From positions 30,802-94,801 of the forward strand of contig JAIXYV010000106.1 in NCBI GenBank assembly GCA_027490055.1: a stretch of DNA of 64,000 bases, in the 5' to 3' direction. This stretch comes from Bacteroidota bacterium (GTDB lineage: Bacteria > Bacteroidota > Bacteroidia > NS11-12g > UBA955). The notes below the pieces were generated by a model, which was given only the letters and a program-made list of their open reading frames with translations, was not told the origin of the DNA and made no database searches. Each line of letters begins with the position of its first letter. Positions within the stretch are counted from its first letter, which is position 1. Shown here piece by piece: positions 6,064 to 42,547 of this stretch. The translations under genes and the position numbers were made by a program.

Positions 6064-6075
6064 TTCTGTTGTGTT

Positions 6076-20229: not shown

Positions 20230-22397
20230 GGATTAGGGTTACGTTTTTTAAATTCAGCCAAACCATTTTCCAGGTATTTCAGGAACTCTTCGGTATCGAA
20301 TTGCTTTTTATTGATTTCGCTACCAACAGGAGTTTGAAGAAGATTTTCTTTACCATCCAGTAAGCAATATAGAGGTTGAGAAGTAGCACCGAAGTAGCAT
20401 ATTTCAATTTCGGCATTTTTCTTACCGAGTGTAGTGATTTTCTTTTTGCTATATCTGCCAATGAATTGTTCAGAGGCTGGCAGTTGTATGGTTTTGTCGT
20501 CTACATAGAGAGAAGCGATTACAAATTCTTCGCGCAGCATTTTAAGCACACGCGGATCACTCCATACCATTTCTTCCATTTTACGACAGTTAACGCAACC
20601 GTGACCGGTAAAGTCGATGAACAAAGGTTTCTTTAGTTCTTTAGAGCAACTAACAGCTTCATCATAGTCATAATAGCCGTTGAGTCCATGAGGCAGGTGA
20701 AGTTTATCGGCATAGCTAGGTTTTTTGCAGATATTACCGCTTAGACCATTAGCATCTCTGATGCTTCTATTGATATCAAATTCCTGAGTACTCATTGGCG
20801 GCAGGTAGCCTGAAAGGTATTTCAATGGTGCACCCCAAAGACCAGGGATCATGTACACCACAAAAGACAGAACTAAAACACCCATTAGGAGGCGAGGCAC
20901 TTTCAGGAACTTAAGATCGGAGTCGTGGGCAAATTTTAATTTACCTAAAAGGTACAAGCCCATCAGTCCGAAGATGATAATCCACAGTGCCAGATAGACA
21001 TCGCGGTTGAGGATATGCCAGTGGTAGGTTTGATCGGCGATGCTTAAAAACTTGAGGGCGAAAGCCAGTTCAAGAAAACCGATACATACTTTAACACTAT
21101 TGAGCCAGCCTCCGCTTTTAGGCAGAGAATTGAGCCATGATGGGAAGAGCGCGAATAGTGTAAACGGCAGGGCAAAGGCCAGACCGAAACCAAACATAGC
21201 AACAACTGGTCTTAGAAATTCACCACCAGCACTTTTTACGAGTACGTTACCAACGATTGGTCCGGTACAAGAAAAAGACACAATTGCCAGGGTGAGGGCC
21301 ATAAAGAAGGCACCGTAGTATCCACCTTTATCCGCTTCGCGGTCGGCTTTATTGGCGATAGACGAAGGCAGAACGATTTCGAAAGCACCAAAGAAAGAGA
21401 AGGCAAAAATAATAAAGATGACAAAGAAGAGAATATTGGGTAACCAGTGGGTTGAAATCACATTACCGGCGTCGGCACCAAAAGCAAAAGCTACAATGGT
21501 ACCAAGAACTGTGTAGATAAAGATGATTGAAAGTCCGAAGAACATGGCGGTAAGACGGGCTTTCAGTTTACCGCGTTTATCGTTGGTAAAGAAGGCCACG
21601 GTCATAGGGATCATTGGGAACACGCAAGGTGTAAGCAGACCGACTAAGCCAGAGAGGAAGGCAAGAAGAAACAGGCCCCAGTAGTCGACATTATCGGTAT
21701 CGGCGCCCTGACCATTAAAAGTTTTTTTAACGCAAGCGGCGGTATCAGCAAAGCTTGAGAGTTTATAATTGCAAGAAGGACAATCAGAGTTGGTGGTATC
21801 AGCAGGAGAGACGGCGGGGTTAGCTGGAATAATTGCAGCAGTATCGGCAGGCACTACCTCAGGTTCGGCAGACGTTTCAGCGGTTTGATCGCAGGTCATT
21901 TCCTTGCCAGAGGCGGTAAATCCGGCAGAGAAGCGCAAAGGATTCATCATACCAAAGTTAAAGCAGGTACTTTCTGTGCACCATTGACCCTCGTATGTTC
22001 CAGAGATTTTTCCAGTATTTTTAATGACCTTTATTTTCTGACGGAATTCAGCTTTATTGAAGAATTCGCCCACTTCACATTTGAAGATTTCGTCCATGAA
22101 GTGCTTATCGCCAACGCTGTAAAGCTCACCGACTTTGCAGAACGCTTTTGAATCGTCGAAGTTAATAACGAATTTAAGCGGACCGAATTCACATTTGCTG
22201 TAGGTACTGTATAGATGAAATCCAGCAGGAATATCACATTTAAAGATCACTTCAATAACATCACCGGTTTTGGGGTTATTATTACTAAAGGACACTTTAA
22301 GGACAGGAGGAGCTGGTTCGGCAGGCGCTTGAGCGAGCACAGAGCTTGAAACAAGGAGCGTAATCAGGCTTAAACAGAAAAGTTTAAATTGATGCAT
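20226..22397 (-). CDS. dsbD: Thiol:disulfide interchange protein DsbD (N-terminal DsbD-alpha domain, central TM transporter with CxxC, C-terminal thioredoxin-like domain)
   Basis: The product has a signal peptide, a central 8-TM region with [10 protein letters not shown], and a C-terminal thioredoxin fold with [13 protein letters not shown]. Its stop overlaps the gmhA start (ATGA). Confidence 0.85.
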
Positions 22398-26900: not shown

Positions 26901-28139
26901 CCAGGTGCTCCTGGTTGTATCGAGGCTGACAGAGACAATCTGCCATATGTTGATCCAGGTGCAACTGCAACTGACAACAAAGCGCCTTTCAATCTGACAT
27001 CTTCTATTGTAACTTCAGGTTCTGTTGATACAAGAACAATTGGCAACTATGTAATCACTTACTATGTACAAGACGTAGCTGGTAACTCTGTAACTAAAAC
27101 AAGAAACGTTTGTGTTGAAGATACCAAAAAGCCTACTATCTTATCTTTAGGTGATACTTCAGTTCAAATTGGTAGTGTTTGGTTAGATCAGACTTCAGTT
27201 GAAGACAGATATGACAACAACCCAGTATTAACTAAAGAGTGGGGCTTCAACGGTCCGGTTAACACTTTAGTAAGAAGAACTTACCCTGTAACCTACTATG
27301 CAGTAGATCAAAGCGGTAACCAAGCTACTCCAGTAGTGAGAAACTACAGAGTTGACGACTTCATTGCTCCAGTTATTAGCTTAAACACTTTTGACATTGT
27401 AAACCATGAAGTAAGAACTCCATACAATTCAGTTGCTGCTTCAGTAACTGATAACTACTACCCAGCTGGTCAAGTAAGTTTAGTGAAAATTTCTAGCAAC
27501 GTTAACCCTAACGTATTAGGAACTTACACTGAAGTATTTGAAGCTATCGACGGTTCTGGTAACGTTACAACTAAAACAAGAACTGTTATGGTTGTTGATA
27601 CAAAAGCTCCAAGAATCTGGGGTGAAATCATCCACGGTTGCGTAGGTGAAAACATCTGGCCAATGTGGGGTATTTCAACTACTGACAACTACTACAGTCC
27701 AGCTCAGTTGAAGCCACTTGTTGAGGTTGTTAACCAAAACGTAAATATTTGGGAAGAAGGTATCTACACTATCACTTACAGAGTAACTGATCCAAGTGGA
27801 AATACTTCTAACGAATTCACTAGAATGGTATACTTCACCTACTGGCCTAAATGTACTAACAGTACAGTATCAGTTGATGATTTAAAATCAGTAGAAGAAA
27901 GAGTAAGCGTATACCCTAACCCAAGTAACGGTATCGTAAACATCGACCTGCAAGGTGCATTAGTACAAACTGCAACACTTGAAGTTTACAATGCTATGGG
28001 TCAGTTAGTAGTAAGCAAAAACTACAACGAAGTAAGCGGTAAATTTGATGTAGACTTAAGCGGTAATGCAGCTGGTGTTTACACTATCAAGTTAATTGCT
28101 AACGGCGAAGTAGTAACTAAGCGCGTAGTACTTCAGTAA
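23946..28139 (+). CDS. T9SS cargo protein, paralog A (1397 aa): signal peptide, N-terminal GEVED-type module, CUB-like domain, second GEVED region, 5 Ig-like (DUF5011/HYR-type) repeats and a T9SS type A C-terminal sorting domain
   Basis: The sorting domain is ...VSVYPNPSNGIVNIDLQGALVQTATLEVYNAMGQLV...AGVYTIKLIANGEVVTKRVVLQ. GEVED-like motifs are present (GETVDFSINL, GEYEDYGLVL). The Ig-like repeats start PPVITLTGSDTVRIEVGSSYTDAGATAFDASEGNITG... Confidence 0.85.
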   Translation: MKRLITNLKALKLMLAAPLLGLFGMTASAQAPWCDGFHMYNNTTYYSSSNYIFALDQIRISSGGTVLFNVPADGFSGGSTCGSEWRLANPTSRAIDLTAGNSYTVEASGSSGSYAYGGSIGVFVDYNNDKDFLDAGEYQGAFTVPGTVQTPSTLGSRTFTVPCNITPSATRLRVVGNYSGYPMNQSYGCSTCSGPPYYGETVDFSINLVLPTSVSANFIAPTNTWVKVVNKFINSNQSGYTEHAWDANNDGSYEQRSVVPNYSNPQFMWTTPGTKCVKLRSTNCLGRDSIVKCFNVQSPTAVPVVDFVADRVTIEQYQSMRLFDLSTNGPWSWTWDVYDSTTYASSGYYPNLTDGDLYSDPWGNGNNEFTQNPEFAFDIPGCYTIVMTCKNDVGPSATKRKVCYVTVTLPTQYNLGYGTYGPNNDNVVGSTSGTIFDDGGPNLNYGNNQGLGSRSFLQITPCNAKKIVLTMSRLKFKDAGDKLSVWDGKSPGGPGTTLLATWSVGAKAPQKVTATSGSMYLLFEADAAGVDSGYAGSYTSELGPATLPSPAFTPNTVPSYNSTPVKFTNTTQNIVGVPTWEWTIDGAQVANNTKKDFNYTFYTDGQYDVCLEIKSCVGNNKSCQKIDVITPNTQTSLDFIATNRRPNINVDFSTLIPVSDNANRFEWTIFPTSYTLMNPPASPSTYGAGFVKYNATPGDSIPKPRLKFTAPGCYTITLKAYNSLDPTNTSRTIVKNKFICALDYCKPSSYILSSDVGINRVRIVDGTTDLINNYSTSGDVAYTDYSATVKANLTYGKTYTLEVSRTSNVDPANRKGWIDWNIDGDFDDAGEQIFFETSTYNQVYTTTFTVPALSASFEGLTKMRIAANYNNESTTACGPITAGEYEDYGLVLANDNTPPVITLTGSDTVRIEVGSSYTDAGATAFDASEGNITGNLVMTTDLDAAVTGLYTVEYNVTDKSGNKAVPAIRTIIVVNDLTKPILTLNPGAPGCIEADRDNLPYVDPGATATDNKAPFNLTSSIVTSGSVDTRTIGNYVITYYVQDVAGNSVTKTRNVCVEDTKKPTILSLGDTSVQIGSVWLDQTSVEDRYDNNPVLTKEWGFNGPVNTLVRRTYPVTYYAVDQSGNQATPVVRNYRVDDFIAPVISLNTFDIVNHEVRTPYNSVAASVTDNYYPAGQVSLVKISSNVNPNVLGTYTEVFEAIDGSGNVTTKTRTVMVVDTKAPRIWGEIIHGCVGENIWPMWGISTTDNYYSPAQLKPLVEVVNQNVNIWEEGIYTITYRVTDPSGNTSNEFTRMVYFTYWPKCTNSTVSVDDLKSVEERVSVYPNPSNGIVNIDLQGALVQTATLEVYNAMGQLVVSKNYNEVSGKFDVDLSGNAAGVYTIKLIANGEVVTKRVVLQ

Positions 28140-28192: not shown

Positions 28193-28480
28193 ATGCAGTC
28201 ATTTTCCTGTCATATTAGTGTTGGAACCAAGTCATTTTTGTTAATTTTGATTTTATTTATTAAAAATATTATTACATTTGAATATTAAATCAATTGTAAT
28301 TGAATGTTGAACTTGTGATTTGAATCAATCATTTTATTTATATTTATTCTAAATAAGATATCAAGGTTTTGAAAAACAATTCTCTATACAGCTCATTTAT
28401 TAATAATTTAACTTTTTGCAACTATGTGAAAAAAAATTATTAAGAAATTGATATTAAATTGCCAACCTATTAAAAAAAAT

Positions 28481-31400
28481 ATGAATAAGTTTACTAATTA
28501 CTACAATGAAAAGATGGGCTTTGCCCGGTACTTTGTACTGGCATTGTTTCTTCTTTTAGGAGTCAGTACTGCATCTGCTCAGTATTGTGCATCCAACGCA
28601 ACATCAACGGCAGACGAGGATATCGCCTCGGTTTATTTGAAAGGTAACACGGTAACATTAAACAATGTTTCTGCTGCTCCAACCTGTCAGACATACACCG
28701 ATTGGACTGCCTTAACACCTGTTGATTTATCTGCAGGAAGACAGTATTCAATTGTTATCACTGAAAGTACTTGTAACGGTCACTATACTTATGCATGTAA
28801 TGCATGGATTGACTACAACAAGAACAATACTTTTGAGTCTGGTGAGGCTGTAGCTCCAACTTCTCAATCTAAAAATGGTGCTAACGCTGTATTTACTTAC
28901 ACTTGGACAGTACCATGTAACATCACACCTGGAAACACCAGAATGAGAGTTGTTATGATTGAGGGTGCGGTTTCAAACCCTTCAAGTGCCTGCGGTACTT
29001 ATACCTGGGGAGAGACTGAAGATTACACAGTTAACTTACAGTTACCAACCTCAGTGAATGCCAACTTTATCGCACCAAGTTCAGCTTGGGTAAAGGCGGT
29101 AGTTAAATTTATCAATCAGAACCCAACAGGGTATATTTCACATTCTTGGAATGCCAACAACGATGCCACTATCGAGGCTCCGAATAGCGTAAACTTTAAT
29201 TATACATGGACTACTCCAGGTAACAAATGTGTTAAATTAAAGTCTACAAACTGTTTGGGCTCTGATTCAATTGTTAAGTGTTTGAATGTTGTTGCACCAA
29301 CTGCAGTGCCTGTTGCGGATTTTGTTGCTGACAGAGTAACAATTGAGCAATATGGTTCAATGAGATTATATGATTTATCATCTAATGGTCCTTGGGATTG
29401 GACATGGGATGTTTATGATTCAACTACTTATGCCTCTTCAGGTTTCTATCCAAGTTTAGCAACAGGTGAGCTTTATTCAGATCCATGGGGTAATGGAAAC
29501 AATGAATTCTCACAGAATCCTGAGTTCGCATTCGACTATCCTGGTTGTTATACTATTGTATTGACAAGTAAGAACGATGTTGGCCCTTCAGTTACTAAAA
29601 GAAAAGTTTGTTATATAACAGTAACATTACCTACTCAATACAACTTAGGTTACGGTACTTATGGTCCTAACAACGACAACGTAGTTGGTAGTTCAGCAGG
29701 TACAATATTTGATGATGGCGGTCCGGGTTTAAACTATGGTAACAACCAAGGTTTAGGTTCACGTTCATTCCTTCAGATCACCCCATGTAACGCTAAAAAG
29801 ATCACTTTGAAAATGACAACTTTGAAATTCAAAGATGCGGGTGATAAATTAAGAGTTTGGGATGGTAAGACTCCAGGTGGTCCTGGTACAACATTATTAG
29901 CTACCTGGACCATGGGTTCAAAAGCTCCAGCAGCAGTAGTTGCTACCAGCGGTAGCATGTATTTATTATTTGAAGCAGATGCTGCAGGTGTAGATTCAGG
30001 TTATGCTGGTTCTTATACTTCAGAACTTGGTCCAGCTACTGTACCAGTTCCAGCTTTCTCTCCAAATTCAGTACCTAGCTATAACAGCACGCCAATATTC
30101 TTTACTAACACTACTCAAAATATTGTTGGTGTTCCTACATGGGAATGGACAATTGATGGCGCTCAGGTTAATAATAATACTGGCAAAGATTTCCGTTATA
30201 CTTTCTATACTGATGGTCAGTATGAAGTATGTGCTGAGATCAAATCTTGTGTTGGTAACAATAAGACTTGTAAAACCATTGATGTAATCACACCGAATCA
30301 ACAAACAATGTTGGATTTCACTGCTTCAAGCAGAAGACCTAACATTAACGTAGATATCGTATCATTGATTCCTTCAAGCGATAATGCTAACAGATTTGAG
30401 TGGACAATCTTCCCGACTTCTTATACTTTAATGAACCCACCAGCTTCTCCATCTACTTATGGAACTGGTTTCGTTAAATACAATGCAACTCCTGGTGATT
30501 CAATTCCAAAACCAAGACTGAAGTTTAATTCACCTGGTTGTTATACAATCACTTTGAAAGCTTACAATTCATTGGATCCTACCAATACTACAAAAACAGT
30601 AGTAAAGAATAAATTCATCTGTGCTTTAGACTATTGTTTACCTGCTTCTTACATCTTAAGTACTGATGTTGGAATCAACAGAGTTCGTGTTGTTGATGGT
30701 ACAAATGACCTTATCAATAACTACACTACATCTGGTGATGTATCTTATACTGATTATAGCAGCACTGTAAAAGCTAATTTAACATACGGTAAATCTTATA
30801 CTATTGAAGTATCAAGAACTGGAAATGTTGACCCGGCTAACAGAAAAGCTTGGATTGACTGGAACATCGACGGTGACTTTGATGATGCAGGTGAGCAAAT
30901 CCTTACTGAGTCTAGCTCTTACAACCAGGTTTACAGCACTACATTTACAGTACCAGCATTATCTGCTTCGTTTGAAGGTTCAACAAGATTACGTGTTGCT
31001 ACTAATTATAACAACGAAAATACTACTGCTTGTGGACCGATTACAGCTGGTGAGTACGAAGATTACGGTATCGTTTTAGCGAATGACAACATGCCTCCGG
31101 TCATTACTTTATTAGGTAGTGATACAGTGAGAATCGAAGTTGGTTCTAACTATACTGACGCTGGTGCAACTGCCTATGATGCTTCAGAAGGTAATATCAG
31201 CAGCAGTTTAGTAATGACTACTGACTTAGATGCAGCGGTTACAGGTTTATACACTGTAGAGTACAATGTAACGGACAAATCTGGCAACAGAGCAGTTCCG
31301 GCTATTCGTACAATCATTGTAGTTAACGACTTAACTAAGCCAATCTTAACGCTTAACCCAGGAACTTCTGGTTGTATTGAAGCAAGAAGAGATAATCTTC

Positions 31401-32596
31401 CATACGTTGATCCAGGTGCAACTGCAACTGATAACAAAGCGCCATTCAATTTGAATTCTTCAATTGTTACTACTGGTACAGTTGATACAAGAACAATTGG
31501 CAACTATGTAATCACTTACTATGTGCAAGACGTAGCTGGTAACTCTGTAACAAAAACAAGAAACGTTTGTGTTGAAGATACCAAAGCTCCAATGGTAGAA
31601 GTTCTAGGTGATACTTCAATTCAGATCGGAAGTGTTTGGATTGATCAGACATCTGCAACTGATGCCTATGATTTGACTCCAACTCTTAACAAAACATGGT
31701 GGACAGTACCAGTTAATACTTTAATAAGAGCTACATACAGCGTAACTTATGAAGCAGTTGACGGTTCAGGTAATATTTCGAATCCAGCTACTGTAAGACA
31801 TTACAGAGTTGATGACTTCATTCCTCCTGTTATTAGTTTAAACACATTTGATATAGTTCAGCATGAGGTAAGAACGCCTTACAACTCTATTGCTGCAACT
31901 GTTTCTGATAACTACTATAGCTCAGGTCAGGTTTCAATCATCAGAAAATCAAGCAATGTTAATTACAATGTTTTAGGCACATATACCGAAGTATTCGAAG
32001 CTATCGATGGATCAGGTAACATTTCAACTAAAACCAGAACAGTTAAAGTGGTAGATACAAAATCTCCTACACTTTGGGGTCAGGTTATCCATGGTTGCGT
32101 TGGTGAAAACATCTGGCCAATGTGGGGTCTGTCAACTACTGACAACTACTACAGTCCAAGTCAGTTATTACCATTAGTAGAAGTGGTTAGTCAAAACGTA
32201 AACATTTGGGAAGAAGGTATCTACTCTATCACTTACAGAGTAACCGACCCAAGTGGTAATACATCTGAAGAGTTCACCAGATTGGCGTACTTCACTTACT
32301 GGCCAAAATGTTACAACAGTACAGTATCAGTTGATGATCTGAAATCTGTTGAAGAGAAAGTAAGCGTATACCCTAACCCAAGTAACGGTATCGTAAACAT
32401 CGACCTGCAAGGTGCATTAGCGCAAACTGCAACCCTTGAAGTTTACAATGCAATGGGTCAGCTGGTAGCAAGCAAAAACTACAGCGAAGTAAGCGGTAAA
32501 TTTGATGTAGACTTAAGAGGTAATGCAGCTGGTGTTTACACTATCAAGTTAATTGCTAACGGCGAAGTAGTAACTAAACGCGTAGTGCTTCAGTAA
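28481..32596 (+). CDS. T9SS cargo protein, paralog B (~1372 aa from MNKFTNYY; the ORF-track start at 28448 is probably spurious): same architecture as paralog A with a divergent N-terminal module
   Basis: The signal peptide is FVLALFLLLGVSTASAQ. From ~aa 200 onward it aligns with paralog A at ~85-90% identity. The C-terminal sorting domain is near-identical to A. Confidence 0.85.
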   Translation: MNKFTNYYNEKMGFARYFVLALFLLLGVSTASAQYCASNATSTADEDIASVYLKGNTVTLNNVSAAPTCQTYTDWTALTPVDLSAGRQYSIVITESTCNGHYTYACNAWIDYNKNNTFESGEAVAPTSQSKNGANAVFTYTWTVPCNITPGNTRMRVVMIEGAVSNPSSACGTYTWGETEDYTVNLQLPTSVNANFIAPSSAWVKAVVKFINQNPTGYISHSWNANNDATIEAPNSVNFNYTWTTPGNKCVKLKSTNCLGSDSIVKCLNVVAPTAVPVADFVADRVTIEQYGSMRLYDLSSNGPWDWTWDVYDSTTYASSGFYPSLATGELYSDPWGNGNNEFSQNPEFAFDYPGCYTIVLTSKNDVGPSVTKRKVCYITVTLPTQYNLGYGTYGPNNDNVVGSSAGTIFDDGGPGLNYGNNQGLGSRSFLQITPCNAKKITLKMTTLKFKDAGDKLRVWDGKTPGGPGTTLLATWTMGSKAPAAVVATSGSMYLLFEADAAGVDSGYAGSYTSELGPATVPVPAFSPNSVPSYNSTPIFFTNTTQNIVGVPTWEWTIDGAQVNNNTGKDFRYTFYTDGQYEVCAEIKSCVGNNKTCKTIDVITPNQQTMLDFTASSRRPNINVDIVSLIPSSDNANRFEWTIFPTSYTLMNPPASPSTYGTGFVKYNATPGDSIPKPRLKFNSPGCYTITLKAYNSLDPTNTTKTVVKNKFICALDYCLPASYILSTDVGINRVRVVDGTNDLINNYTTSGDVSYTDYSSTVKANLTYGKSYTIEVSRTGNVDPANRKAWIDWNIDGDFDDAGEQILTESSSYNQVYSTTFTVPALSASFEGSTRLRVATNYNNENTTACGPITAGEYEDYGIVLANDNMPPVITLLGSDTVRIEVGSNYTDAGATAYDASEGNISSSLVMTTDLDAAVTGLYTVEYNVTDKSGNRAVPAIRTIIVVNDLTKPILTLNPGTSGCIEARRDNLPYVDPGATATDNKAPFNLNSSIVTTGTVDTRTIGNYVITYYVQDVAGNSVTKTRNVCVEDTKAPMVEVLGDTSIQIGSVWIDQTSATDAYDLTPTLNKTWWTVPVNTLIRATYSVTYEAVDGSGNISNPATVRHYRVDDFIPPVISLNTFDIVQHEVRTPYNSIAATVSDNYYSSGQVSIIRKSSNVNYNVLGTYTEVFEAIDGSGNISTKTRTVKVVDTKSPTLWGQVIHGCVGENIWPMWGLSTTDNYYSPSQLLPLVEVVSQNVNIWEEGIYSITYRVTDPSGNTSEEFTRLAYFTYWPKCYNSTVSVDDLKSVEEKVSVYPNPSNGIVNIDLQGALAQTATLEVYNAMGQLVASKNYSEVSGKFDVDLRGNAAGVYTIKLIANGEVVTKRVVLQ

Positions 32597-32852: not shown

Positions 32853-33254
32853 TTAATCCAGGTCATCTATAATATCTGTTGGTTCATCAGAAGACCGGTA
32901 ACCATAAATACTAATAACCGTAGAATAGATAGCCATTACACCAATGCCTGCGGCTAATGCGATATTACCCAAAGGCCAATGCATAATTTTAAGAATAGCA
33001 CCTAGAACAATAGTAAAGCTTGCCAAAGGGCGAAGAATGTATATTAACTTCTTAACGGAATTGCTTAATCTATCTGATTTTAGTTTTTCAGATTCATTAA
33101 AAAATATTGACAATAAAAACCAAAGCAACAAGAAAGCACTGGGCAAAAGTCTGTATACCATTCCCAAAAAATAATTGCCATTATAATCCCATACCTGTTG
33201 TAAAGCAATCAGGAAGAATGCCAACCACAAAAGAATGGTTCTGAAATGTGTCAT
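32853..33254 (-). CDS. Hypothetical 4-TM membrane protein (133 aa), 3 nt downstream of glyA
   Basis: Four hydrophobic helices are visible, with no recognisable motif. Confidence 0.45.
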   Translation of the reverse strand: MTHFRTILLWLAFFLIALQQVWDYNGNYFLGMVYRLLPSAFLLLWFLLSIFFNESEKLKSDRLSNSVKKLIYILRPLASFTIVLGAILKIMHWPLGNIALAAGIGVMAIYSTVISIYGYRSSDEPTDIIDDLD

Positions 33255-34607: not shown

Positions 34608-34615
34608 TATATTTG
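34608..34615 (+). promoter_or_regulatory. -7 box TATATTTG, 5 nt upstream of the TTG start of the 2420-aa gene
   Basis: The sequence matches TAnnTTTG. Confidence 0.4.
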
Positions 34616-34620
34616 TTGTC

Positions 34621-37600
34621 TTGAAGAAAAAGTACTTTTCAAAAAACACTTTTTTTCTATTTTGTTCTTTGTTTATGGCATTGATTATCAATGCTCAGGG
34701 GAATAGATTGTCTTTTGTGGTTACCGGACCGAAGAATCTTTCCATCTGCGGGGTTAATGATTCAGCCTTTGTTGAAGCCTACAATATCTCGTCAGGACCA
34801 GTTAACAACATTACAATTAAACTAATTTTACCATCAGGCATCAATTATGTCAAAGGTTCTTTCTTTGGCACTGGTATTAGCGAAGCCAATGTTACAAATC
34901 TCAATCAACCTATTTTTAATGTTCCCAATTTATTATTAGCTAAGAATACAAAATTCAGGGTATTGCTAACGGCAGATTGCAACTTACTTACCTTTCTAAA
35001 TAACAGCAGTACGCCAACAGTAAGTTTGCGGGCAGATTATACGGGTAATTTTGATGTTGGCAGTTCAATACCGTATTCTGTAAGGGTGCCATCTGTGCAA
35101 TACGGCACTGTAACGAACCTATCATATACAGGTGATGTAGCTACCAAATTCACAAGAAGTATCACCATTGGAAATTATGGCAAAGGACCATTACGAGAGA
35201 TAAAACTTACCAGATATAATGGAAAGGATATTCAAACATTCTTTGTTAACAAAGGGAATACCGTATACAAGGGAGATACAGTAATAACCACATTTAACAC
35301 CAATCATTTCAAAACGGTAGGCAATCTTGACACATTTCTTGATCAGAATGAAACAATCACATTTACAGATTCCAATTTAATTAAAGCCTGTAAATTACTT
35401 AATACTAATTTCGAATTAAGTTGGGGTTGTGGTGGAAAATCCTGCCAGGTTAGTAAGTTATCAGGCTCTGCTTTAATCAGCAATAAAACACCAACATTAA
35501 AGGCAATTCCCTTGCCTGTTTATCCAACATGTTATAACAACAATACGTTTAAATCCGAAGTCCGTTTTGTGAATATCGGTAATATGCCTGCGATAGCTCC
35601 CCGACTTGCAATATCCTCCAACTATTACTATATGTTCTCGAGTTTTGATACTGGATCGATACGCATGAAAGTTGGTTTTAAGGGTACCTGGTACAAACCA
35701 ATCAAGGACAGCACAACGGGTTCATATAACTTAGGTTATTATGGCTGTATCGGTTTATATCCGATTGGATTATTCAGAGTTAAATGTCCGGATTTAAAAC
35801 CGAATGATACGGTCTATCTGACATGGAATACCATATCGTGTACACCACCCCCTTGTAGCAACGCCAGTATGGTGGTCAATAGCTGGGCTTATTATGCCGA
35901 TTTTAAAGATCAGTGTAAGAATCTGAAAACAGTTCCATGGGCCTGGGGAAAGGTTTACGACCAGCACTATTTTACGGGTTCTACTTTTAGTCCGACCGAC
36001 CTTATAGCCAATCAAACCGGCGAGTTCAGAACTTATATCAATTCAGCAAGTCTGTTAAATCGCAATTCATCTGCCTCCTACATAGTAGATATCATTTTAC
36101 CGAAGGGTCTCACTCACAGCAAGCAAAAGAAAGATTTCTATTTTATCAATTCAGATTTAACTGCCAACTGGAATCCAGACAGTATTGTTCAGAAAGGCGA
36201 TACTGTGAGGGCCTATTTTCCGCATCCTGTTCCAATCAATTTAACAGGTGCAGAATTGGTATATTATTTAAAAGCCGATTGTTCTAAGAGTGGTGCCAAT
36301 GGCAACCAAAACATTACTACTCAAATACGCTATATACCAGATAGAACCTGTGGAAGTAAAGAATGGATATTTTTGTATTGCCAGACACAGCAAATAAAAA
36401 TACATTGTATCAGTAATTGTGCTGGCGGTATGAAGTTCAGAAATTTTAAAGTACAAAGGATAAGTTTCGGAAGACCAGACAATGACAATGATGGAAAACC
36501 TGACGCCAGTGGTAGTTTAGATACATTAAGAGTAAGGGAAGAACGTTGCATTTATGGAGACACCATCCAGGCAGAGTATTTCGGAATAGTTAAACGGACT
36601 AGCTCGATAATTACCTGGAGAAATGCTTATATTGAAAGTACAATAACCAATGGCAGGAATCTTGACGTGGCGGGCATTCAATTATTGGTTTGGCGTCGTG
36701 GCGTAACCTTGTCTCTCAATTGTAATCAGATTAAAAGCTGGAAGACAGTGAGTGGTACAACCGCTACATTTAAAATTGATATCAGCACAGATTCAATGCC
36801 TAATTGTGTGTCTTCAGGATTTAGGTACAGCAATGATGATAGTGTGGTAGTGAAAGTAAAGTACAGGGTCAACGGTAATCTTGGTGCTACCATTCAGAAT
36901 TTAAATTTCAGCAATAGGTTTTATACCAGCAATGTCAATAATCCGACCAGCAATACCAACAAGTTTCAATGTGATACTTTTTCTGGCCAGATGATACTGG
37001 CAGGGTATTTTTTCACTACCTGTTGCAGTGATAATTATCAATTAAATTCGTGCGGTACTGTTAGCGTCAATAATTATTTTTATCTTGGTTTAGGCGGAAA
37101 CAGTTATGGCGGCAATAACTATTTTCCATATGAGTATCGAAATTTTGCAAAATTACGATCCATAAGATTTTATATGCCTGCCGGCATGAAAATGAAAAAC
37201 GCCTATATTGGCCAGTACCGTACAAGTGGTTCTAACAGGACCACATTAGAGACAAAAGATTCGTTGCGACCATTGAACATCAATGCGAATCCGATGGTCT
37301 TTGAAGTAGGCAAATTTTTCAAGGATTCGACAGGAGGTGTTATTAATCTGAGTGATGATGGTTTCCATGGCTATTTTGTAGCACAGATGGATCCTACATG
37401 CGAGATTCAGACTGGTGATCCTAACCTTATTAAATACGATTTTGTTTTTGAGCGCAAAGGCATATTTGGTAATACTTTAGATACGATAAGTTCAGGATTT
37501 ACAGACAAACTGATTTACAACAAACCTGTCTTTACTGTTAAACCCGTATCACCAACAATTTATGCGGCACAGGATACTGCAGAGTGGGAATTAGTATTCA

Positions 37601-40600
37601 CAAATTATTCTGCCAGTTTCAGTAATACCAACTCTTGGTTTGCGCCCGATAACAGTGGAGCTATTAAAGTGGTTCAGATCAGAGATGGCGGAACAAAAGA
37701 CACCTTGATGCCTTCAAAAAATGGGGTTTATAAGTTAGGAACAATACCTTTTAACACCACCCGAAAATTTAAAGTTAGGGCCATTTATAATTCTTGTAAG
37801 AAGGACAGTGTAATCTTGTATGCTGGCTGGAATTGCGCAGGCTATCCGAATGATTTAGCCAGTTATCCTTGCGTAAAAGAGCGAATACCATTGTATCTTG
37901 AACCACAGAACACACAGTATCAGGTGACATTAACAGATTCTGTCAGAGTGGCTGATTTATGTGCCTCTACACCCTACACCATGACCATAGAGAATATTGG
38001 TGCTACAGCGGGTTATTCTACAAAAGCCATCATTAATTTACCTATTGGAATGACAGTGGATCCTGGCTCCTGTTATATCCGTTATCCGCATAAGAATGCT
38101 AAGTCATCTTTATCTAATCCAGTATTAAAAAGTGGTACCACCTATGAGTGGAACTTATCTGGATTAAATACCACTATAGCCAATGGTTTTAAAGGGGTAA
38201 GCGATACTAATAAAAACAAAATAATCATCTATTTCAGAGTAAAAACTTCTTGTGATTATTCGAGTGGAAATTATATTCGAGCAAGTGCTTCCGGCAATAT
38301 AAAATGTGGCGATCCAATCATGGTTTATCCAGCCATTAGCAATCCATTAAACATTAAAGGTGTAACACGTCCATATTATACCTTACTGAAGGTTGAATCT
38401 GACTCTATTTTTCCTTGTGAAAAGCCAAGTAAAGTTCGAGTAAAAATTATTAATCTTGGTCCGGGTAAAACAGGCTCTGAAGACAAGTATCAAGCTATAT
38501 TGGTTCCAGGATTAAGCTACAACAGTAGTATGTATACAGCAAGCTATAACGCGCCTGTAGACAGTTTAACCACTACCAGAAACATTAACGGTGCAACAGA
38601 AGTAGAATTTAGTTTAAGAGATAGCATACAGCCTGGTGACAGTATGTATTTTGATTTCGGATTTAATAGCGATGGCAGATTTTTGAATTGCGGGACAGTT
38701 GACTTATACAGTCAGGCAGCAGTTAAACAAGAGGTAACTTGTGTATCCAATAATTCGAAGTGTAAAATCAATGTTGTTACCGGTAATAATTTACTGAAGC
38801 CGACTGTAGTAAAAGGGTCAGTTGGCTTTTCTGGTTTAAAAACTAAAATATTAAGTACAGCAAACGATTCAGAAATCCTATCGATGCAATACCGCATCAC
38901 GAATACCAGTTTCAGAATTGCATCGCCCAATACTATAGTTTATAAACTGGTCTATGATAAAAACAGTTCGGGTACAGTCAATTCTGGTGATATCGTTGCC
39001 TTTACAGATACGATTAAAACAGGCTTAGGTAAAAACAACTTTACAGATATTACTAAAACGATTAAAGTAAAAGCAGGACAGTCGTGTGCCCTATTTATTG
39101 CCTTAGATTCTGCCAGTTGCAGTTGTGGCTTTGCTTATGCAAAATTTCCGGTTCCGGGATTGCAGAATGCTGGCATAGATCAATCACTTTGTAGCGGTGA
39201 TACAATCAAGCTAGGTGTTACCAAAGTAAACGGTTACCGATATCTTTGGACCCCAGGAAGTGAGTTTATTTCTGATACAGTAGCTCAGCCAGTTGCTGTG
39301 ATGGAGAACACAGATAGTGCAGGAATTTTTAAGAATTATATTCTTACAACCTATAGAGGATTCTGCAATAGTAAAGACACTGTAAAAGTGGAGATTTATA
39401 AGTTACCAGCATTAAGATTACTGCAAAAAGACACATCAATTTGTGATGGAAATCAGGTTGTTTTAAAAGCAGTTTCTAAAGGAGGAACAGGTTTGCATAC
39501 CATCAAATGGAGTCCTGCTAAAACAGTGAAAGACAGCACAAAATTTACCACTTCCACCAAACCTTTAAAGACGCAAACGTATGTTGCCAGCATTGTAGAC
39601 GCTAAGCAATGCAAAGCAAAGGACAGTATGCGCATAGTGGTTTATCAGAATCCAATAGCAAAATTCACTTATCCTGAAACTTGTTTAAATTTACCATTGT
39701 TGTTAAGTGATAGCAGCAAAGTTAGTGGAGATACTATCAGTCTGCGAAAGTGGAACTTTAATGGTATTGATACCACGCAGATTAAAGACTGGTTGATAGA
39801 TTTACAAGGTAATTCAGATGCTTTAGTTTCCTTAACTATCAGAAGTGGATTTGGCTGTGAAGATACGATCGTTAAAACAGTGTATTTGAATCCATATGTT
39901 GTTGCAGATTTTTCGACCAAAGATGTATGTTTTGGAGACTCTGTAAAATTTGTCAATCTTAGCACACTATCAAAAGGCGTAATACAATCTAATATTTGGG
40001 ATTTCGGCGATGCTATAACCAGCGTAAAGACTCAAACCAAACATTTATACAATGCTGCAGACACTTATCAGGTAAAGCTTATCTCAATTAGTGATAAAAA
40101 TTGCAACGATACCATTGCAAAATCTGTAATTGTTTATCCGCGACCATCAACAGCATTTAGTATAAGTAATGTATGTCTTAAGGACAGTATTCATGCTTTT
40201 AATAGCTCAACAATTGTAAATGATTCTATTACCAGTCAGTGGTGGTATATTAATAAGGATACGATAAGTCAACAGCATTTAACATATTTATTGAGCTATG
40301 ATACATCGTATATTTTAACATTAAAGACATCAACAGCATTTGGCTGCAGAGACAGTTTAAGTAAATCAGTAGAGGTATACACAAATCCTAAAGCGCTATT
40401 TAATGTTAATCCTGTTTGTGAAGGCAAGAAGAGCACTGTTATCAGTAGTTCAAGCATTAGAAAAGGTGCTATTTCGTCCTACAATTATGCAGTTAGTGAT
40501 GGCAATAGTTTTACCAATCAGAATTTTGTCCATCAATTTGCCAAAGGCGATACTTTTGATATTAGATTAATTGTTACTTCTTCTAACAATTGCAGAGATA

Positions 40601-41883
40601 CATTAACTAAACAAGCCATAGTGTATCCTCGAATTGTACCTTCATTTAAGGTATCGGATACTTGTGTATCGGCAATGGCAGTGATAAGAGACCGGTCCAC
40701 ATTTGTCAATACCGGAATCAGTCGCTGGGTATACGATTTTGGTAATGGCGATTCGGCCTTTATCAGCAATCCATTTTATCAGTACTCAGCACCTGGCACT
40801 TATACTATAAGACAAACAGTTACCAGCAGAGAAGGATGCGTTTATGACACTACAGGTAAGGTGACTATTTATCCATTACCAAAACCTGATTTCAGAGATA
40901 CTAATAAGTGTGTCGATAACCAATTTAATTTCTTTTCAAAGTCGACCATAAGTTCGGGCACCATTAATACGTATAAATGGCATTTTGGGGACAATACCAA
41001 CTCTGTATTAAGAGATCCGGGTCATGTGTTTCCGGGAGCTGGCAACTATATAGTGAAGTTAATTGCGTCTAGTAATTTTGGCTGTGTCGATTCGATTGAA
41101 AAATCGATTGTAAGTTACCCTCCGGTACAGGTAAAATTTGGTGTTTACAATGTTTGTTTAGGAGACCCAATTGAATTTACCGATAGCAGTATCGTTCCGT
41201 CTTCGAGCATTAAACAGTACCAGTGGTGGTTTGGGGACAATGATACCTCTATGCAAAAGCAACCTTGGCACACCTATAAAACCGACGACACATTTAAAGT
41301 AAAACTGAGGATCACAACAGCTTATGATTGTGATTACGATAGCAGCACAACACTCACTGTTTATCCGGTGCCAACAGCAAATTTCAAGACCGATCCAGAT
41401 CAGGGTACCATAGTTAATCCAGAGATCCAGATTACAGATTTTAGTACTGGCGCAGATACCTTGATTTATGACTTAGGGGATGGTACTTTCTCAATGATGA
41501 GAAACCTTGTAAACAGTTATCCGGATAGTGGTACATTTACCTTGAGACAAACAGTATGGAACACCTTTGGTTGTCGGGATACCTTTATAAAAACAATTAC
41601 TATACGCTACTTATTCGTATTCAATACACCAACGGCATTTAGTCCAAATAACGATGGAATTAATGATGTATTTGCCCCTGGTGGGATAGGCTATACCAAA
41701 TATTCTATGTGGATTTATAACCGCTGGGGTGAAATGATCTATGAAACAACCGACGGTAAGGGTTGGGATGGTACCTATGCTGGAGAAGATGTCATGACGG
41801 ATGTCTATGCCGTTAGGTATAAAGTCAAAGATTTTAAGGGAAGGAATCACTATTACAGTGCTACCTTTACTTTGTTGAGATAG
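34621..41883 (+). CDS. Giant cell-surface protein (2420 aa): signal peptide, ~1500-aa Cys-rich N-terminal region of unknown fold, ~9 tandem PKD-type domains and a T9SS type B sorting domain
   Basis: The C-terminus ...FSPNNDGINDVFAPGG...IYNRWGEMIYET..GWDGTYAGEDVMTDVYAVRY is a type B sorting domain. Repeated ~85-aa units of the form ...F..GD....(N/S)....HxY...G.Y.V.L......C.D.. are PKD-like. Confidence 0.8.
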   Translation: MKKKYFSKNTFFLFCSLFMALIINAQGNRLSFVVTGPKNLSICGVNDSAFVEAYNISSGPVNNITIKLILPSGINYVKGSFFGTGISEANVTNLNQPIFNVPNLLLAKNTKFRVLLTADCNLLTFLNNSSTPTVSLRADYTGNFDVGSSIPYSVRVPSVQYGTVTNLSYTGDVATKFTRSITIGNYGKGPLREIKLTRYNGKDIQTFFVNKGNTVYKGDTVITTFNTNHFKTVGNLDTFLDQNETITFTDSNLIKACKLLNTNFELSWGCGGKSCQVSKLSGSALISNKTPTLKAIPLPVYPTCYNNNTFKSEVRFVNIGNMPAIAPRLAISSNYYYMFSSFDTGSIRMKVGFKGTWYKPIKDSTTGSYNLGYYGCIGLYPIGLFRVKCPDLKPNDTVYLTWNTISCTPPPCSNASMVVNSWAYYADFKDQCKNLKTVPWAWGKVYDQHYFTGSTFSPTDLIANQTGEFRTYINSASLLNRNSSASYIVDIILPKGLTHSKQKKDFYFINSDLTANWNPDSIVQKGDTVRAYFPHPVPINLTGAELVYYLKADCSKSGANGNQNITTQIRYIPDRTCGSKEWIFLYCQTQQIKIHCISNCAGGMKFRNFKVQRISFGRPDNDNDGKPDASGSLDTLRVREERCIYGDTIQAEYFGIVKRTSSIITWRNAYIESTITNGRNLDVAGIQLLVWRRGVTLSLNCNQIKSWKTVSGTTATFKIDISTDSMPNCVSSGFRYSNDDSVVVKVKYRVNGNLGATIQNLNFSNRFYTSNVNNPTSNTNKFQCDTFSGQMILAGYFFTTCCSDNYQLNSCGTVSVNNYFYLGLGGNSYGGNNYFPYEYRNFAKLRSIRFYMPAGMKMKNAYIGQYRTSGSNRTTLETKDSLRPLNINANPMVFEVGKFFKDSTGGVINLSDDGFHGYFVAQMDPTCEIQTGDPNLIKYDFVFERKGIFGNTLDTISSGFTDKLIYNKPVFTVKPVSPTIYAAQDTAEWELVFTNYSASFSNTNSWFAPDNSGAIKVVQIRDGGTKDTLMPSKNGVYKLGTIPFNTTRKFKVRAIYNSCKKDSVILYAGWNCAGYPNDLASYPCVKERIPLYLEPQNTQYQVTLTDSVRVADLCASTPYTMTIENIGATAGYSTKAIINLPIGMTVDPGSCYIRYPHKNAKSSLSNPVLKSGTTYEWNLSGLNTTIANGFKGVSDTNKNKIIIYFRVKTSCDYSSGNYIRASASGNIKCGDPIMVYPAISNPLNIKGVTRPYYTLLKVESDSIFPCEKPSKVRVKIINLGPGKTGSEDKYQAILVPGLSYNSSMYTASYNAPVDSLTTTRNINGATEVEFSLRDSIQPGDSMYFDFGFNSDGRFLNCGTVDLYSQAAVKQEVTCVSNNSKCKINVVTGNNLLKPTVVKGSVGFSGLKTKILSTANDSEILSMQYRITNTSFRIASPNTIVYKLVYDKNSSGTVNSGDIVAFTDTIKTGLGKNNFTDITKTIKVKAGQSCALFIALDSASCSCGFAYAKFPVPGLQNAGIDQSLCSGDTIKLGVTKVNGYRYLWTPGSEFISDTVAQPVAVMENTDSAGIFKNYILTTYRGFCNSKDTVKVEIYKLPALRLLQKDTSICDGNQVVLKAVSKGGTGLHTIKWSPAKTVKDSTKFTTSTKPLKTQTYVASIVDAKQCKAKDSMRIVVYQNPIAKFTYPETCLNLPLLLSDSSKVSGDTISLRKWNFNGIDTTQIKDWLIDLQGNSDALVSLTIRSGFGCEDTIVKTVYLNPYVVADFSTKDVCFGDSVKFVNLSTLSKGVIQSNIWDFGDAITSVKTQTKHLYNAADTYQVKLISISDKNCNDTIAKSVIVYPRPSTAFSISNVCLKDSIHAFNSSTIVNDSITSQWWYINKDTISQQHLTYLLSYDTSYILTLKTSTAFGCRDSLSKSVEVYTNPKALFNVNPVCEGKKSTVISSSSIRKGAISSYNYAVSDGNSFTNQNFVHQFAKGDTFDIRLIVTSSNNCRDTLTKQAIVYPRIVPSFKVSDTCVSAMAVIRDRSTFVNTGISRWVYDFGNGDSAFISNPFYQYSAPGTYTIRQTVTSREGCVYDTTGKVTIYPLPKPDFRDTNKCVDNQFNFFSKSTISSGTINTYKWHFGDNTNSVLRDPGHVFPGAGNYIVKLIASSNFGCVDSIEKSIVSYPPVQVKFGVYNVCLGDPIEFTDSSIVPSSSIKQYQWWFGDNDTSMQKQPWHTYKTDDTFKVKLRITTAYDCDYDSSTTLTVYPVPTANFKTDPDQGTIVNPEIQITDFSTGADTLIYDLGDGTFSMMRNLVNSYPDSGTFTLRQTVWNTFGCRDTFIKTITIRYLFVFNTPTAFSPNNDGINDVFAPGGIGYTKYSMWIYNRWGEMIYETTDGKGWDGTYAGEDVMTDVYAVRYKVKDFKGRNHYYSATFTLLR

Positions 41884-41914
41884 CAGCTCATTTTTCTATT
41901 TCACTTTAATATTG

Positions 41915-41922
41915 TATATTTG
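41915..41922 (+). promoter_or_regulatory. -7 box TATATTTG upstream of the small T9SS cargo gene
   Basis: The sequence matches TAnnTTTG. Confidence 0.4.
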
Positions 41923-41932
41923 CAATACAACA

Positions 41933-42547
41933 TTGAAAAGCAAATATTTAAAGATTAAGTTTTTAACTGTTTTTTTGTTTTGGGTATGTGCACTTAATGC
42001 ACAGTTTACACCAAAATTGAATCGTTTCAGTGCTCAGCACAGAGACGGAATAGTGTATCTCGACTGGGTGATGTCCAGTGGAAGTGTTTGCCTTGGAATT
42101 TCAATAGAGAAGAGTGAAGATTCCATCAATTTCAAAGAGATTGGAAGTATCAGTGGTTTTTGTGGCAATTTAACGAAGCCTATGTCTTATGCTTTTCAGG
42201 ATGAATCACCCTTACTTAATAAAAAAATATACTACCGTTTAAGCTATCCTGGATTAGGCCATTCTCACTATATCAGCATTGTTGTCATCGATGTCAAAAA
42301 GAACGATTATGAGGTAAATCCCAATCCTTCATCAGGCCTTTCAAAAATCAATTTTTACAATCCCAAAGGCGAATTGCATCATATAAAAGTACTTAATTTA
42401 TCAGGTGTTGAGGTATTAAAGTTAGAAACCACTAACGAAGTATTTGAGATAGAATCCGGCTTATTGGAAGCGGGTATTTATCAGTTTATGATCTTCAACG
42501 ATTCGCTCAGCAATGTTGTCAACGGACGCCTGATTATTGCTCAGTGA
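41933..42547 (+). CDS. Small secreted protein (~204 aa, TTG start) with a T9SS type A C-terminal sorting domain
   Basis: The signal peptide is KSKYLKIKFLTVFLFWVCALNA. The C-terminus ...VNPNPSSGLSKINF...GIYQFMIFNDSLSNVVNGRLIIAQ is a Por secretion tail. Confidence 0.65.
   Translation: MKSKYLKIKFLTVFLFWVCALNAQFTPKLNRFSAQHRDGIVYLDWVMSSGSVCLGISIEKSEDSINFKEIGSISGFCGNLTKPMSYAFQDESPLLNKKIYYRLSYPGLGHSHYISIVVIDVKKNDYEVNPNPSSGLSKINFYNPKGELHHIKVLNLSGVEVLKLETTNEVFEIESGLLEAGIYQFMIFNDSLSNVVNGRLIIAQ

Follow-up and report, generated by a model that had tools for sequence, protein, structure and literature searches.

The window (the whole 64-kb stretch of DNA analysed here) carries a complete gene of 2420 codons with a TTG start, as the initial annotation had it (Table 1). 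Its orthologs are 2398–2436 aa long and 65–93% identical to it, with start and length unchanged, and an exact-sequence look-up of the window protein itself returned no record. The TAnnTTTG box that the initial annotation had placed upstream of the gene is present, and two observations speak for its being more than a chance match. Over the window as a whole the motif occurs 82 times vs 81 by chance; at 4–11 nt before a start codon it is found for 9 of the 38 window ORFs, where the chance estimate is ~0.2. In addition, the box is kept at an equal distance in about 10 orthologous loci examined (those listed being L001, L002, L004–L007, L011, L013 and L014), although the intergenic sequences on either side of it diverge between these loci. 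The box is thus likely to be a genuine –7 promoter element, in which case its position just before the TTG would imply a leaderless or nearly leaderless mRNA. Rfam families are absent throughout the window.

Table 1. Positions of the gene, its upstream box and the parts of its product (window coordinates; residues of the 2420-aa protein)
Feature	Residues	Window positions	Strand	Basis
Match to Bacteroidota –7 promoter consensus TAnnTTTG (TATATTTG)		34608..34615	+	5 nt upstream of TTG start
CDS, complete		34621..41883	+	2420 codons + stop; TTG start
Sec signal peptide, predicted (MKKKYFSKNTFFLFCSLFMALIINA then Q)	1–25	34621..34695	+	Read from sequence; cleavage predicted between INA and QG
Head module core, about 10 predicted beta-sandwiches, about 26 conserved Cys	26–1233	34696..38319	+	BLASTP, phmmer, AF2
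Domain 1, DUF11-like beta-sandwich, conserved pair C43/C120	about 27–150	34699..35070	+	Sub-threshold TIGR01451; relatives; model
Peak-conservation stretch G-R-P-D-N-D-N-D-G-K-P-D-A-S-G-S-L-D	616–641	36466..36543	+	DxDxDG-type loop between two sandwiches
N-Y-F-P-Y-E-Y-R-N, in sandwich 7, after YLGLG..(CC) segment	833–841	37117..37143	+	Alignment A1
Head extension, two predicted beta-sandwiches, first weakly DUF11-like	about 1252–1497	38374..39111	+	AF2 model 2, hhalign
Two Ig_7-like ('CHU_C-associated') Ig domains	about 1500–1680	39118..39660	+	Ig_7 match, model 2
Eight PKD repeats, exactly 82 aa each	1681–2336	39661..41628	+	PKD_4 and PKD profiles; register
T9SS type B C-terminal sorting domain	2335–2420	41623..41880	+	TIGR04131, CHU_C

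The N-terminus has the layout of a Sec signal peptide, with a basic stretch followed by a hydrophobic one and then by INA and Gln. Relatives keep both the start and this Gln, which is invariant in the family alignments A3, A5 and A6, and we infer that cleavage takes place directly before it, leaving Gln26 as the mature N-terminus. At the other end of the protein, the extreme C-terminus matches TIGR04131 (46.8 bits, cut-off 35) and residues 2336–2401 match CHU_C (PF13585; E = 8e-10, 39.1 bits, cut-off 27), both above the curated cut-offs, and the preceding repeats are recovered by PKD_4 (PF18911; E = 9e-55, 6 stretches) and PKD (PF00801; E = 2e-23). A conserved Cys pair is found in seven of the eight PKD repeats with a periodicity that fits the 82-aa register. 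The earlier description of a PKD string ending in a type B domain is thereby borne out, and given this domain, the PKD stalk and the Sec signal, its reading of the product as a surface protein is a natural one. Between the stalk repeats and the N-terminal region lie two further Ig-like domains, the first of which (~1500–1603) is a beta-sandwich in the second AlphaFold2 model (which ends at residue 1620); a sub-threshold Ig_7 match at residues 1601–1678 (E = 0.015) is the sole basis of the second. Ig_7 is also found in the relatives P0053 and P0062.

For residues 1–1500, to which the initial annotation could assign no motif, searches of Pfam and NCBIfam likewise gave zero family matches. The nearest to one is a sub-threshold trace of TIGR01451, the DUF11 repeat, at residues 54–82 (9.8 bits, cut-off 24); PF01345 did not match the window protein, and a sequence-profile search of the head against the PDB gave a CBM2-like pattern on domain 1 at chance level (E = 0.07), the sole hint of binding in a head in which we found no ligand, lectin or CBM signature. 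Structure prediction was more informative, as AlphaFold2 models of 1200 residues (model 1; pLDDT 88.5, pTM 0.60) and of residues 1167–1620 (model 2; pLDDT 86.5) are both all-beta, and together they divide residues 26–1500 into about 12 beta-sandwich domains, the limits of which, taken from the DSSP string, are approximate. The only Foldseek neighbours of these models are strings of Ig-like, MG, ASH or integrin-leg domains, with TM-scores of 0.1–0.3. These predictions do not favour the novel binding domain that had been proposed for this region; the head is instead predicted to be a conserved but unnamed module and not a new fold. The opposite outcome, in which the region resolves into Ig-type repeats, is seen at the level of predicted structure and only in part at the level of profiles, as the window protein has no significant match whereas domain 1 of its relatives is DUF11 above the Pfam threshold.

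The counterparts of domain 1 that exceed this threshold include those of P0058 and P0062 and of 12 other relatives, DUF11 being present in five of eight and seven of 29 relatives in the two sets scanned. Like the DUF11 proteins (PF01345 / TIGR01451 'conserved repeat domain'), the head is predicted to be composed of beta-sandwiches, with a first domain that the DUF11 models recognise in relatives. In contrast to them, the window protein stays below every DUF11 threshold, and the head domains are not copies of one repeat, each position of the series being conserved individually. A tandem repeat array was considered and rejected, as hhalign self-comparison gave weak similarity among three DUF11-like domains only: those at about 1087–1226 and about 1252–1375 weakly resemble domain 1, with residues 35–125 matching residues ~1258–1307. 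The extents of the core were set by BLASTP against P0058, P0061 and P0063, which delimits a unit common to proteins with other C-termini. The extension, with conserved Cys at 1266, 1357, 1374, 1381 and 1489, is common to P0062, P0064 and the type A proteins of ~1700 aa described below.

The initial annotation had called the N-terminal region Cys-rich, quoting the peptide CSKSGANGNQNITTQIRYIPDRTCGSKEWIFLYCQTQQIKIHCISNC (residues 554–600). As a statement about composition this is exaggerated, since the 39 Cys of residues 27–1530 amount to 2.6%, compared with 2.0% in the PKD part and a mean of 1.2% in the other window ORFs; what is striking is their conservation. About 30 head Cys are each retained by 84% or more of a diverse set of 196 relatives, and among these representatives C701 and C729 are lost jointly. 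As the protein folds, about 19 disulfides could form. Conservation is otherwise even over all head domains and peaks at residues 616–641, which have the highest mean column conservation of all segments (0.60), contain the invariant G617, D620 and D628, form a loop in the model and are the sole DxDxDG match in the whole protein; judged by this motif, the loop is a presumed Ca2+ site. In the motif at residues 833–841 N833, F835, P836, E838 and R840 are invariant. Orthologs conserve the head better than the stalk (72% vs 46% in L014, for example).

A further property of the sequence is an excess of the Bacteroidota O-glycosylation motif D-(S/T)-(A/I/L/V/M/T), as defined in PMC8550257. The protein contains 43 such sequons where 9.8 ± 3.0 are expected (z = 11.6, 4.4-fold), an excess seen only with Asp at position –1. 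It is also family-wide (a head median of 19 vs 5.5), and the neighbouring Ig-like T9SS cargo proteins do not share it. The protein is thus probably O-glycosylated at many of these sites. However, the motifs lie mostly at loop-to-strand junctions and several are conserved in position, so some of the excess may have a structural cause and not reflect glycosylation.

The initial annotation had suggested a search for independent occurrence of the N-terminal region, and it is indeed found apart from the PKD and type B part, with varied C-termini. A repeat of the word-indexed search with a profile of eight sequences yielded no additional relatives, but an exhaustive phmmer search did, and matched 804, 663 and 358 clusters (50% identity) at E < 1e-3, 1e-10 and 1e-30, respectively. 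Most of these matches are a single full-length stretch (1–1200) that starts at residue 20–50 of the matched protein, straight after the signal peptide. A genome scan with the pattern of residues 833–841 found a relative in 291 GTDB species; the 80 loci kept are essentially all from uncultured organisms, mostly labelled Bacteroidota, and among the family members found there is none from an organism that has been cultured or studied. The proteins that bear the head range from about 1300 to 6455 aa, and behind it they carry FG-GAP plus DUF7619 and a type A CTD, SprB repeats (P0056), cadherin-like repeats or fn3. In proteins of about 1700 aa hardly anything separates the head from a type A CTD. 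CTDs of either type occur behind the head, type A in 20 of 29 short members and in P0058–P0061.

At its own locus the gene is a single syntenic core-like gene, located in its lineage between glyA and mgsA/ileS. Comparison of 79 related loci reveals no conserved neighbouring gene family, and hence no conserved partner gene is seen. PorP/SprF matches are absent from the adjacent ORFs and from the seven window ORFs of 270–350 aa, and no core T9SS genes were identified within the window; however, type A sorting domains on three other window ORFs (23946–28139, 28448–32596 and, weakly, 41912–42547) imply that a T9SS is present.

We take the gene to encode a non-enzymatic giant cell-surface protein of the adhesin or fibril type, a reading to which we assign a probability of roughly 0.55. 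In such a model the protein would be exported by Sec, lose its signal peptide before Gln26 and fold in the periplasm, where its disulfides could form and where O-glycosylation would probably take place at many of the sequons. PorP-like proteins are the binding partners of proteins with a type B CTD, as in the PG1035–PorP and SprB–SprF pairs (PMC9143113), and an outer-membrane protein of the PorP/SprF kind, with its gene at another place in the genome, would retain the window protein at the surface. From the membrane outward the order would be the CTD, a spacer formed by the eight PKD repeats and the two Ig_7-like domains, and a distal head of ~1500 aa in which about 12 beta-sandwiches follow in a fixed series that opens with the DUF11-like domain; conserved cysteines, many of them located where domains meet, and the one DxDxDG loop would brace this series. 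Such bracing would make the head one rigid unit, which evolution moves as a block.

We also put forward, tentatively, a more far-reaching version of this reading. The head would then be an undescribed family module in which 12 sandwiches follow one another in fixed order, with ~30 conserved Cys, a Ca2+ lock and dense O-glycosylation. It would be the hallmark of a major surface structure (an adhesin, a coat or a prey- or particle-capture fibril) in uncultured Bacteroidota, of which many come from freshwater. Its inter-domain architecture would be unlike that of any solved multi-Ig protein, and the module would have passed in one piece between the type A and type B anchoring systems.

The protein could instead be a gliding-motility adhesin like SprB or RemA, in which case the type B CTD would attach it to an SprF-like outer-membrane protein, which would be pulled along the gliding track while the head grips the substratum. 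The general plan fits, as SprB of Flavobacterium johnsoniae and PG1035 of P. gingivalis are likewise giant, repetitive all-beta proteins that have a Sec signal and carry a type B domain (TIGR04131/CHU_C), and the PorP/SprF-like surface retention of both is what is expected here (PMC9143113). SprB is a type B cargo bound to SprF (PMC9143113), which is itself disulfide-coupled to the moving track (PMC12635249). Several relatives carry the JGI label 'gliding motility-associated-like protein', and P0056 has its SprB repeats behind the same head. However, the window protein itself is devoid of SprB repeats (PF13573), neither its neighbours nor the other scanned window ORFs include an sprF-like gene, and with no neighbour conserved over the 79 loci no sprCDBF-like operon is seen. 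Unlike SprB, it has as its head a fixed, non-repetitive series of ~12 domains that elsewhere also stands on type A CTDs. The type A signal leads to covalent A-LPS anchoring and not to track coupling, and as the head is so often found on it, its function need not involve movement. We therefore consider a role as gliding adhesin unlikely.

If the protein were a structural coat, akin to the S-layer proteins TfsA and TfsB of Tannerella forsythia, it would form a protective, heavily O-glycosylated layer and not act as a specific adhesin. TfsA and TfsB are T9SS-secreted all-beta S-layer glycoproteins with many D(S/T)(A/I/L/V/M/T) O-glycosylation sites (PMC8550257), and the head family is enriched in the same sequon. 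This enrichment is strong, specific and family-wide, although it may be partly structural as discussed above. A coat would also suit an all-beta, predicted disulfide-braced molecule that is evenly conserved and shows no clear hot-spot for binding, the single syntenic core-like gene, and the many family members that consist of the head and a type A CTD only, which is the arrangement of T9SS-secreted S-layer proteins. Against this, self-assembly is without support, no sequence similarity to TfsA or TfsB was detected, and the long stalk of ten domains and the type B anchor of the window protein are atypical of S-layer proteins. We regard a coat of this kind as distinctly improbable for the window protein.

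Secreted Bacteroidota glycoside hydrolases commonly carry PKD domains and T9SS sorting signals, and the same companions here raise the idea of a protein that binds or degrades polysaccharides and captures nutrients by displaying a carbohydrate-binding or catalytic head. The weak CBM2-like match on domain 1 and the NPCBM_assoc and ChitinaseA_N matches in some relatives point the same way, the latter two being Ig-like accessory folds. Yet neither the window protein nor the 48 scanned relatives (A5 and A6) contain a catalytic family, which led us to reject the enzyme reading; moreover, the models consist of all-beta sandwiches with neither a barrel nor an (alpha/beta) fold, and the gene context is not PUL-like. 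Any such role in polysaccharide use thus appears very improbable. Weaker still is the case for an alpha-2-macroglobulin/TEP-like protease trap or another covalently reactive protein, which we find scarcely credible. It arises from the best Foldseek matches, in which C3, C5, A2M, CD109 and TEP1 align over ~1200 columns (E = 1e-21 to 1e-15). Proteins with MG domains (alpha-2-macroglobulin, C3, TEP, CD109) or ASH domains (hydin, CPC1) do resemble the head in being runs of 7–9-stranded sandwiches, but TM-scores lie at 0.1–0.2 for this group and at 0.13–0.20 for the protease-trap matches, with an rmsd of about 45 Å, so the agreement is confined to the succession of sandwiches. A CxEQ thioester motif is absent from the window protein, the helical thioester domain is in neither model, the A2M Pfam families do not match, and there is no sequence relationship to the MG or ASH proteins. 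With the thioester and the helical domain missing and no TM-score above 0.2, this reading was rejected.

The preferred interpretation as an adhesin- or fibril-type surface protein opens no new mechanism, as the protein shares its fold class, secretion route and general plan with known surface proteins of Bacteroidota. The ~1500-residue conserved head, however, has no Pfam or NCBIfam model even though its family is widespread (at least 800 clusters and 291 species-level genomes), and defining it as a module would improve the annotation of many metagenomic giants now listed as "hypothetical / PKD domain-containing". For T9SS researchers the family also offers a natural case in which anchors of type A and of type B carry one and the same cargo head.

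The giant protein is encoded by an intact reading frame, and in each of three alignments of its distant relatives the residue directly after the signal peptide, Gln26, never varies. Pfam returned PKD_4 (E 9e-55), PKD (E 2e-23) and CHU_C (E 8e-10) matches, which, together with the TIGR04131 match, bear out the initial annotation of the C-terminal part as a PKD-like string ending in a type B sorting domain; the protein is both a T9SS type B cargo and a PKD-repeat protein. The N-terminal region (the head, residues 26–1500) had been described as lacking an assignable motif, and indeed Pfam and NCBIfam give none above threshold in residues 1–1500, the sole match being a far sub-threshold DUF11 repeat at 54–82. 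Its description as Cys-rich is true in moderation only, as the cysteine content is 2.6%, against 2.0% in the PKD part and a mean of 1.2% in the other window ORFs. Raised cysteine content is also seen in window ORFs 12076–14580 (+; 2.4%) and 20226–22397 (–; 2.8%).

Coordinates of the giant gene, its product and associated elements (nucleotides of the window or residues of the protein)
Feature	Position	Strand	Details
Giant protein CDS	34621–41883	+	intact, 2420 codons, TTG start
Signal peptide, typical	residues 1–25	+	MKKKYFSKNTFFLFCSLFMALIINA; read from sequence
Ig_7-like domains, n = 2	residues ~1500–1680	+	N-terminal to PKD repeats; sequence layout
PKD repeats, n = 8	residues 1681–2336	+	perfect 82-residue register, Cys pair in most; sequence layout
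Type B T9SS sorting domain	residues 2335–2420	+	TIGR04131 (NCBIfam), 46.8 bits vs cut-off 35
AlphaFold2 model	residues 27–1226		mean pLDDT 88.5, pTM 0.60
AlphaFold2 model	residues 1167–1620		mean pLDDT 86.5, pTM 0.70
Conservation peak (0.60), loop	residues 616–641		G-x-P-D-N-(D/N)-N-D-G-x-P-D-x-S-G-x-L-D; alignment
Second invariant motif	residues 833–841		N-x-F-P-Y-E-Y-R-N; alignment
TAnnTTTG box	34608–34615	+	TATATTTG; 5 nt upstream of TTG start
Boxes near likely starts	3273, 7413, 22537, 34551 (–), 34608, 41915, 43441, 54976 and others		4–11 nt upstream
Small ORF, 211 aa	41912–42547	+	begins 29 nt past the giant gene's stop

An initial homolog search yielded 66 clusters, mostly ~2400-aa orthologs from MAGs, and BLASTP showed residues 1–1233 to be common to proteins with quite different C-termini, namely FG-GAP/VCBS repeats with DUF7619 and a type A sorting domain, cadherin-like/Big_9 domains with CHU_C, or SprB repeats. 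Exhaustive phmmer searching of 1.84 billion representatives with residues 27–1226 matched 804 proteins at E < 1e-3, 663 at 1e-10 and 358 at 1e-30; among the matches listed, most span all 1200 residues as one stretch from residue 20–50 of the hit, and total lengths run from ~1300 to 6455 aa. In domain scans, 20 of 29 short members (mostly ~1700 aa) have a type A sorting domain a short way beyond the head, and 19 long members carry additional PKD, K319L-PKD, fn3, SprB, FG-GAP and Ig_7 domains together with CHU_C or Por_Secre_tail. Because the head is found with such varied C-termini and with type A sorting domains, sequence comparison places it as a unit that also exists without the PKD/type B part, a question the initial annotation had left to a homolog search. 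Within the ~2400-aa ortholog group total length is nearly constant (2398–2436 aa) down to ~40% identity, so the number of stalk domains (Ig_7-like plus PKD) seems constrained in this subgroup, other subgroups ranging from 1300 to 6455 aa.

The head was modelled with AlphaFold2 in two segments, for which 49 and 44 sequences were aligned. Essentially only beta structure is predicted in either model, pLDDT is at least 50 at every residue, and the strand pattern gives ~10 sandwiches in residues 27–1226 and two further at ~1252–1497 before the Ig_7-like domains, these limits being an approximate reading of DSSP strings. Foldseek against the PDB matched solely proteins with strings of Ig-like sandwiches: hydin, CPC1-type ASH-domain proteins, the complement C3, C5, A2M, CD109 and TEP1 group, mastigoneme, PrgB, integrin alpha legs, pilins and the base of GhpA. 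E-values go down to 1e-24, yet TM-scores are 0.1–0.3 and rmsd is 11–78 Å, mostly 15–50 Å, among the matches listed, which indicates that the modelled head belongs to a familiar fold class in an arrangement common to no solved protein. The initial annotation had suggested that the region may be a novel binding domain, distinct from known repeats; profiles give no above-threshold match to it in the giant protein, but the predicted structure resolves into Ig-type domains. Domain 1 is the sole domain of the head recognisable from sequence: the aligned domain passes the Pfam cut-off for DUF11 in two relatives, P0058 and P0062; of 8 diverse head modules 5 pass it, and of 29 short family members 7 do. 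The giant protein itself has the far sub-threshold match at 54–82. In an hhalign self-comparison domain 1 is weakly similar to domains at ~1106–1215 and 1258–1307. The head is an unnamed family module made of a familiar fold class.

Conservation is even over the head domains (0.33–0.46) and peaks in an acidic loop containing the single DxDxDG motif of the protein (DNDNDG at residue 620); motif searches of the giant protein found neither LPxTG nor a CxEQ thioester motif. About 30 head cysteines are each retained by 84% or more of 196 representatives, most by over 94%; C701 and C729 are lost jointly, and so is the vicinal pair C801 and C802. Many conserved cysteines lie at approximate domain junctions (257/270/275/304, 1059/1072/1084/1114 and 1211/1229/1266). 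The second invariant motif, taken as search pattern, picked out 291 GTDB species genomes that contain a relative; practically every one of the 80 loci kept comes from a MAG, mostly labelled Bacteroidia or Bacteroidota, and several are from lake series. The database names of 10 representatives are 'hypothetical', 'T9SS type A sorting domain-containing', 'gliding motility-associated' or 'TIGR01451 family', with no studied protein among them, and literature searching turned up no description of the head family.

O-glycosylation in Bacteroidota follows the sequon D-(S/T)-(A/I/L/V/M/T) (PMC8550257; review PMC12871550). The giant protein has 43 such sites against 9.8 ± 3.0 in shuffles (maximum 23 in 2000), with an excess in both halves (24 vs 4.8 and 19 vs 5.0) that is Asp-specific, since z stays within –1.5 to +1.5 when D is exchanged for E, N, Q, K, G, S, T, A, P, R or Y. 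The excess in the head is family-wide (median 19 vs 5.5; z > 3 in 71% of 202 relatives), and two neighbouring Ig-like type A cargo paralogs (23946–28139 and 28448–32596) show none (4 vs 6.5 expected). Part of the signal may be structural, as the sites are mostly placed where a loop passes into a strand, several keep their position in relatives (D647 87%, D740 91%, D1062 76%) and some fit a C-x-D-(S/T) or a GD(S/T)-hydrophobic pattern; dense O-glycosylation is accordingly worded here as a prediction, not a demonstration. Window ORF 12076–14580 carries 11 D-(S/T)-hydrophobic sequons against 3.9 expected.

In the giant protein a Sec-type N-terminus is followed by an all-beta head with conserved cysteines and one acidic loop, a stalk of PKD and Ig domains and the type B T9SS signal. 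It would fold in the periplasm, where disulfides would form and O-glycans be added, and then be exported through the T9SS and retained at the surface by a PorP/SprF-like protein, as in the type B precedents PG1035–PorP and SprB–SprF (PMC9143113), the stalk holding a rigid head outwards. The head is mounted on type A as well as type B anchors, which speaks for a function at the distal end that is independent of how the protein is anchored. Since neither the giant protein nor 48 relatives contain a catalytic domain, a structural or adhesive role is the best reading (probability roughly 0.55). A more novel but less likely reading would make the head a distinct super-module, glycosylated and disulfide-locked, that builds a major surface structure of uncultured Bacteroidota.

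Functionally, the giant protein resembles giant T9SS surface proteins such as SprB as well as the CHU_ large proteins, but it does not fit the SprB type, and we consider an SprB-like gliding adhesin rather unlikely. Its predicted glycosylation, read from the sequons, recalls TfsA/TfsB; an S-layer-like glycoprotein coat is rather unlikely. A carbohydrate-binding or degrading protein is very improbable, the absence of catalytic domains speaking against degradation, and an A2M-like trap, A2M being among the structural matches, is essentially refuted by the missing thioester motif, the all-beta models and the low TM-scores; the protein is not of the A2M type.

The TAnnTTTG box that the initial annotation placed immediately upstream of the giant gene is present, and it is retained at identical distance in 10 of the orthologous loci examined, the remaining spacer having diverged. 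The motif total in the window is at chance level (82 vs 81), and 9 of 38 window ORFs have a box 4–11 nt before the start codon where ~0.2 are expected (an estimate from motif frequency). Positional conservation and enrichment together support a real –7 element. This suggests that the mRNAs of the giant gene and of many others in the organism may be leaderless or very short-leader, a reading that relies on the box-to-transcription-start distance of known Bacteroidota promoters. The box positions also imply that glyA (34553), the 211-aa ORF (41912) and mgsA (43438) start further downstream than their listed TTG codons.

The giant gene is flanked by divergent glyA (SHMT) on one side and by the small ORF, mgsA and ileS on the other, a synteny limited to close relatives. 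When all ORFs of 79 loci were clustered, none of the neighbour families proved to be shared throughout the head family, and no PorP/SprF-like protein was detected among nearby ORFs or 7 window ORFs of suitable size; the giant gene therefore seems to be monocistronic, with the small ORF as its one partner at most. The latter lies directly downstream in 5 related loci, with no terminator-like site between the two genes and one after it at 42576; it has a signal peptide if TTG at 41933 is the start (MKSKYLKIKFLTVFLFWVCALNAQ), and its match to a type A sorting domain stays below threshold (24.4 bits vs 27). The tandem paralogs at 23946–28139 and 28448–32596 (+; ~1390 aa each) carry GEVED domains, bacterial surface Ig-like domains and a type A sorting domain, and with the giant gene and the small ORF make four T9SS cargo genes in 19 kb. 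A 133-aa ORF at 32853–33254 (–), kept beside glyA in 10 related loci, has a short GldL_N match at residues 82–109 (28 bits vs cut-off 24) and was rejected as GldL because it is too short. At 4301–6816 (–) a LytTR response regulator, a His_kinase-domain sensor and a LiaF-like membrane protein lie side by side in what looks like a cell-envelope stress module unrelated to the giant gene.
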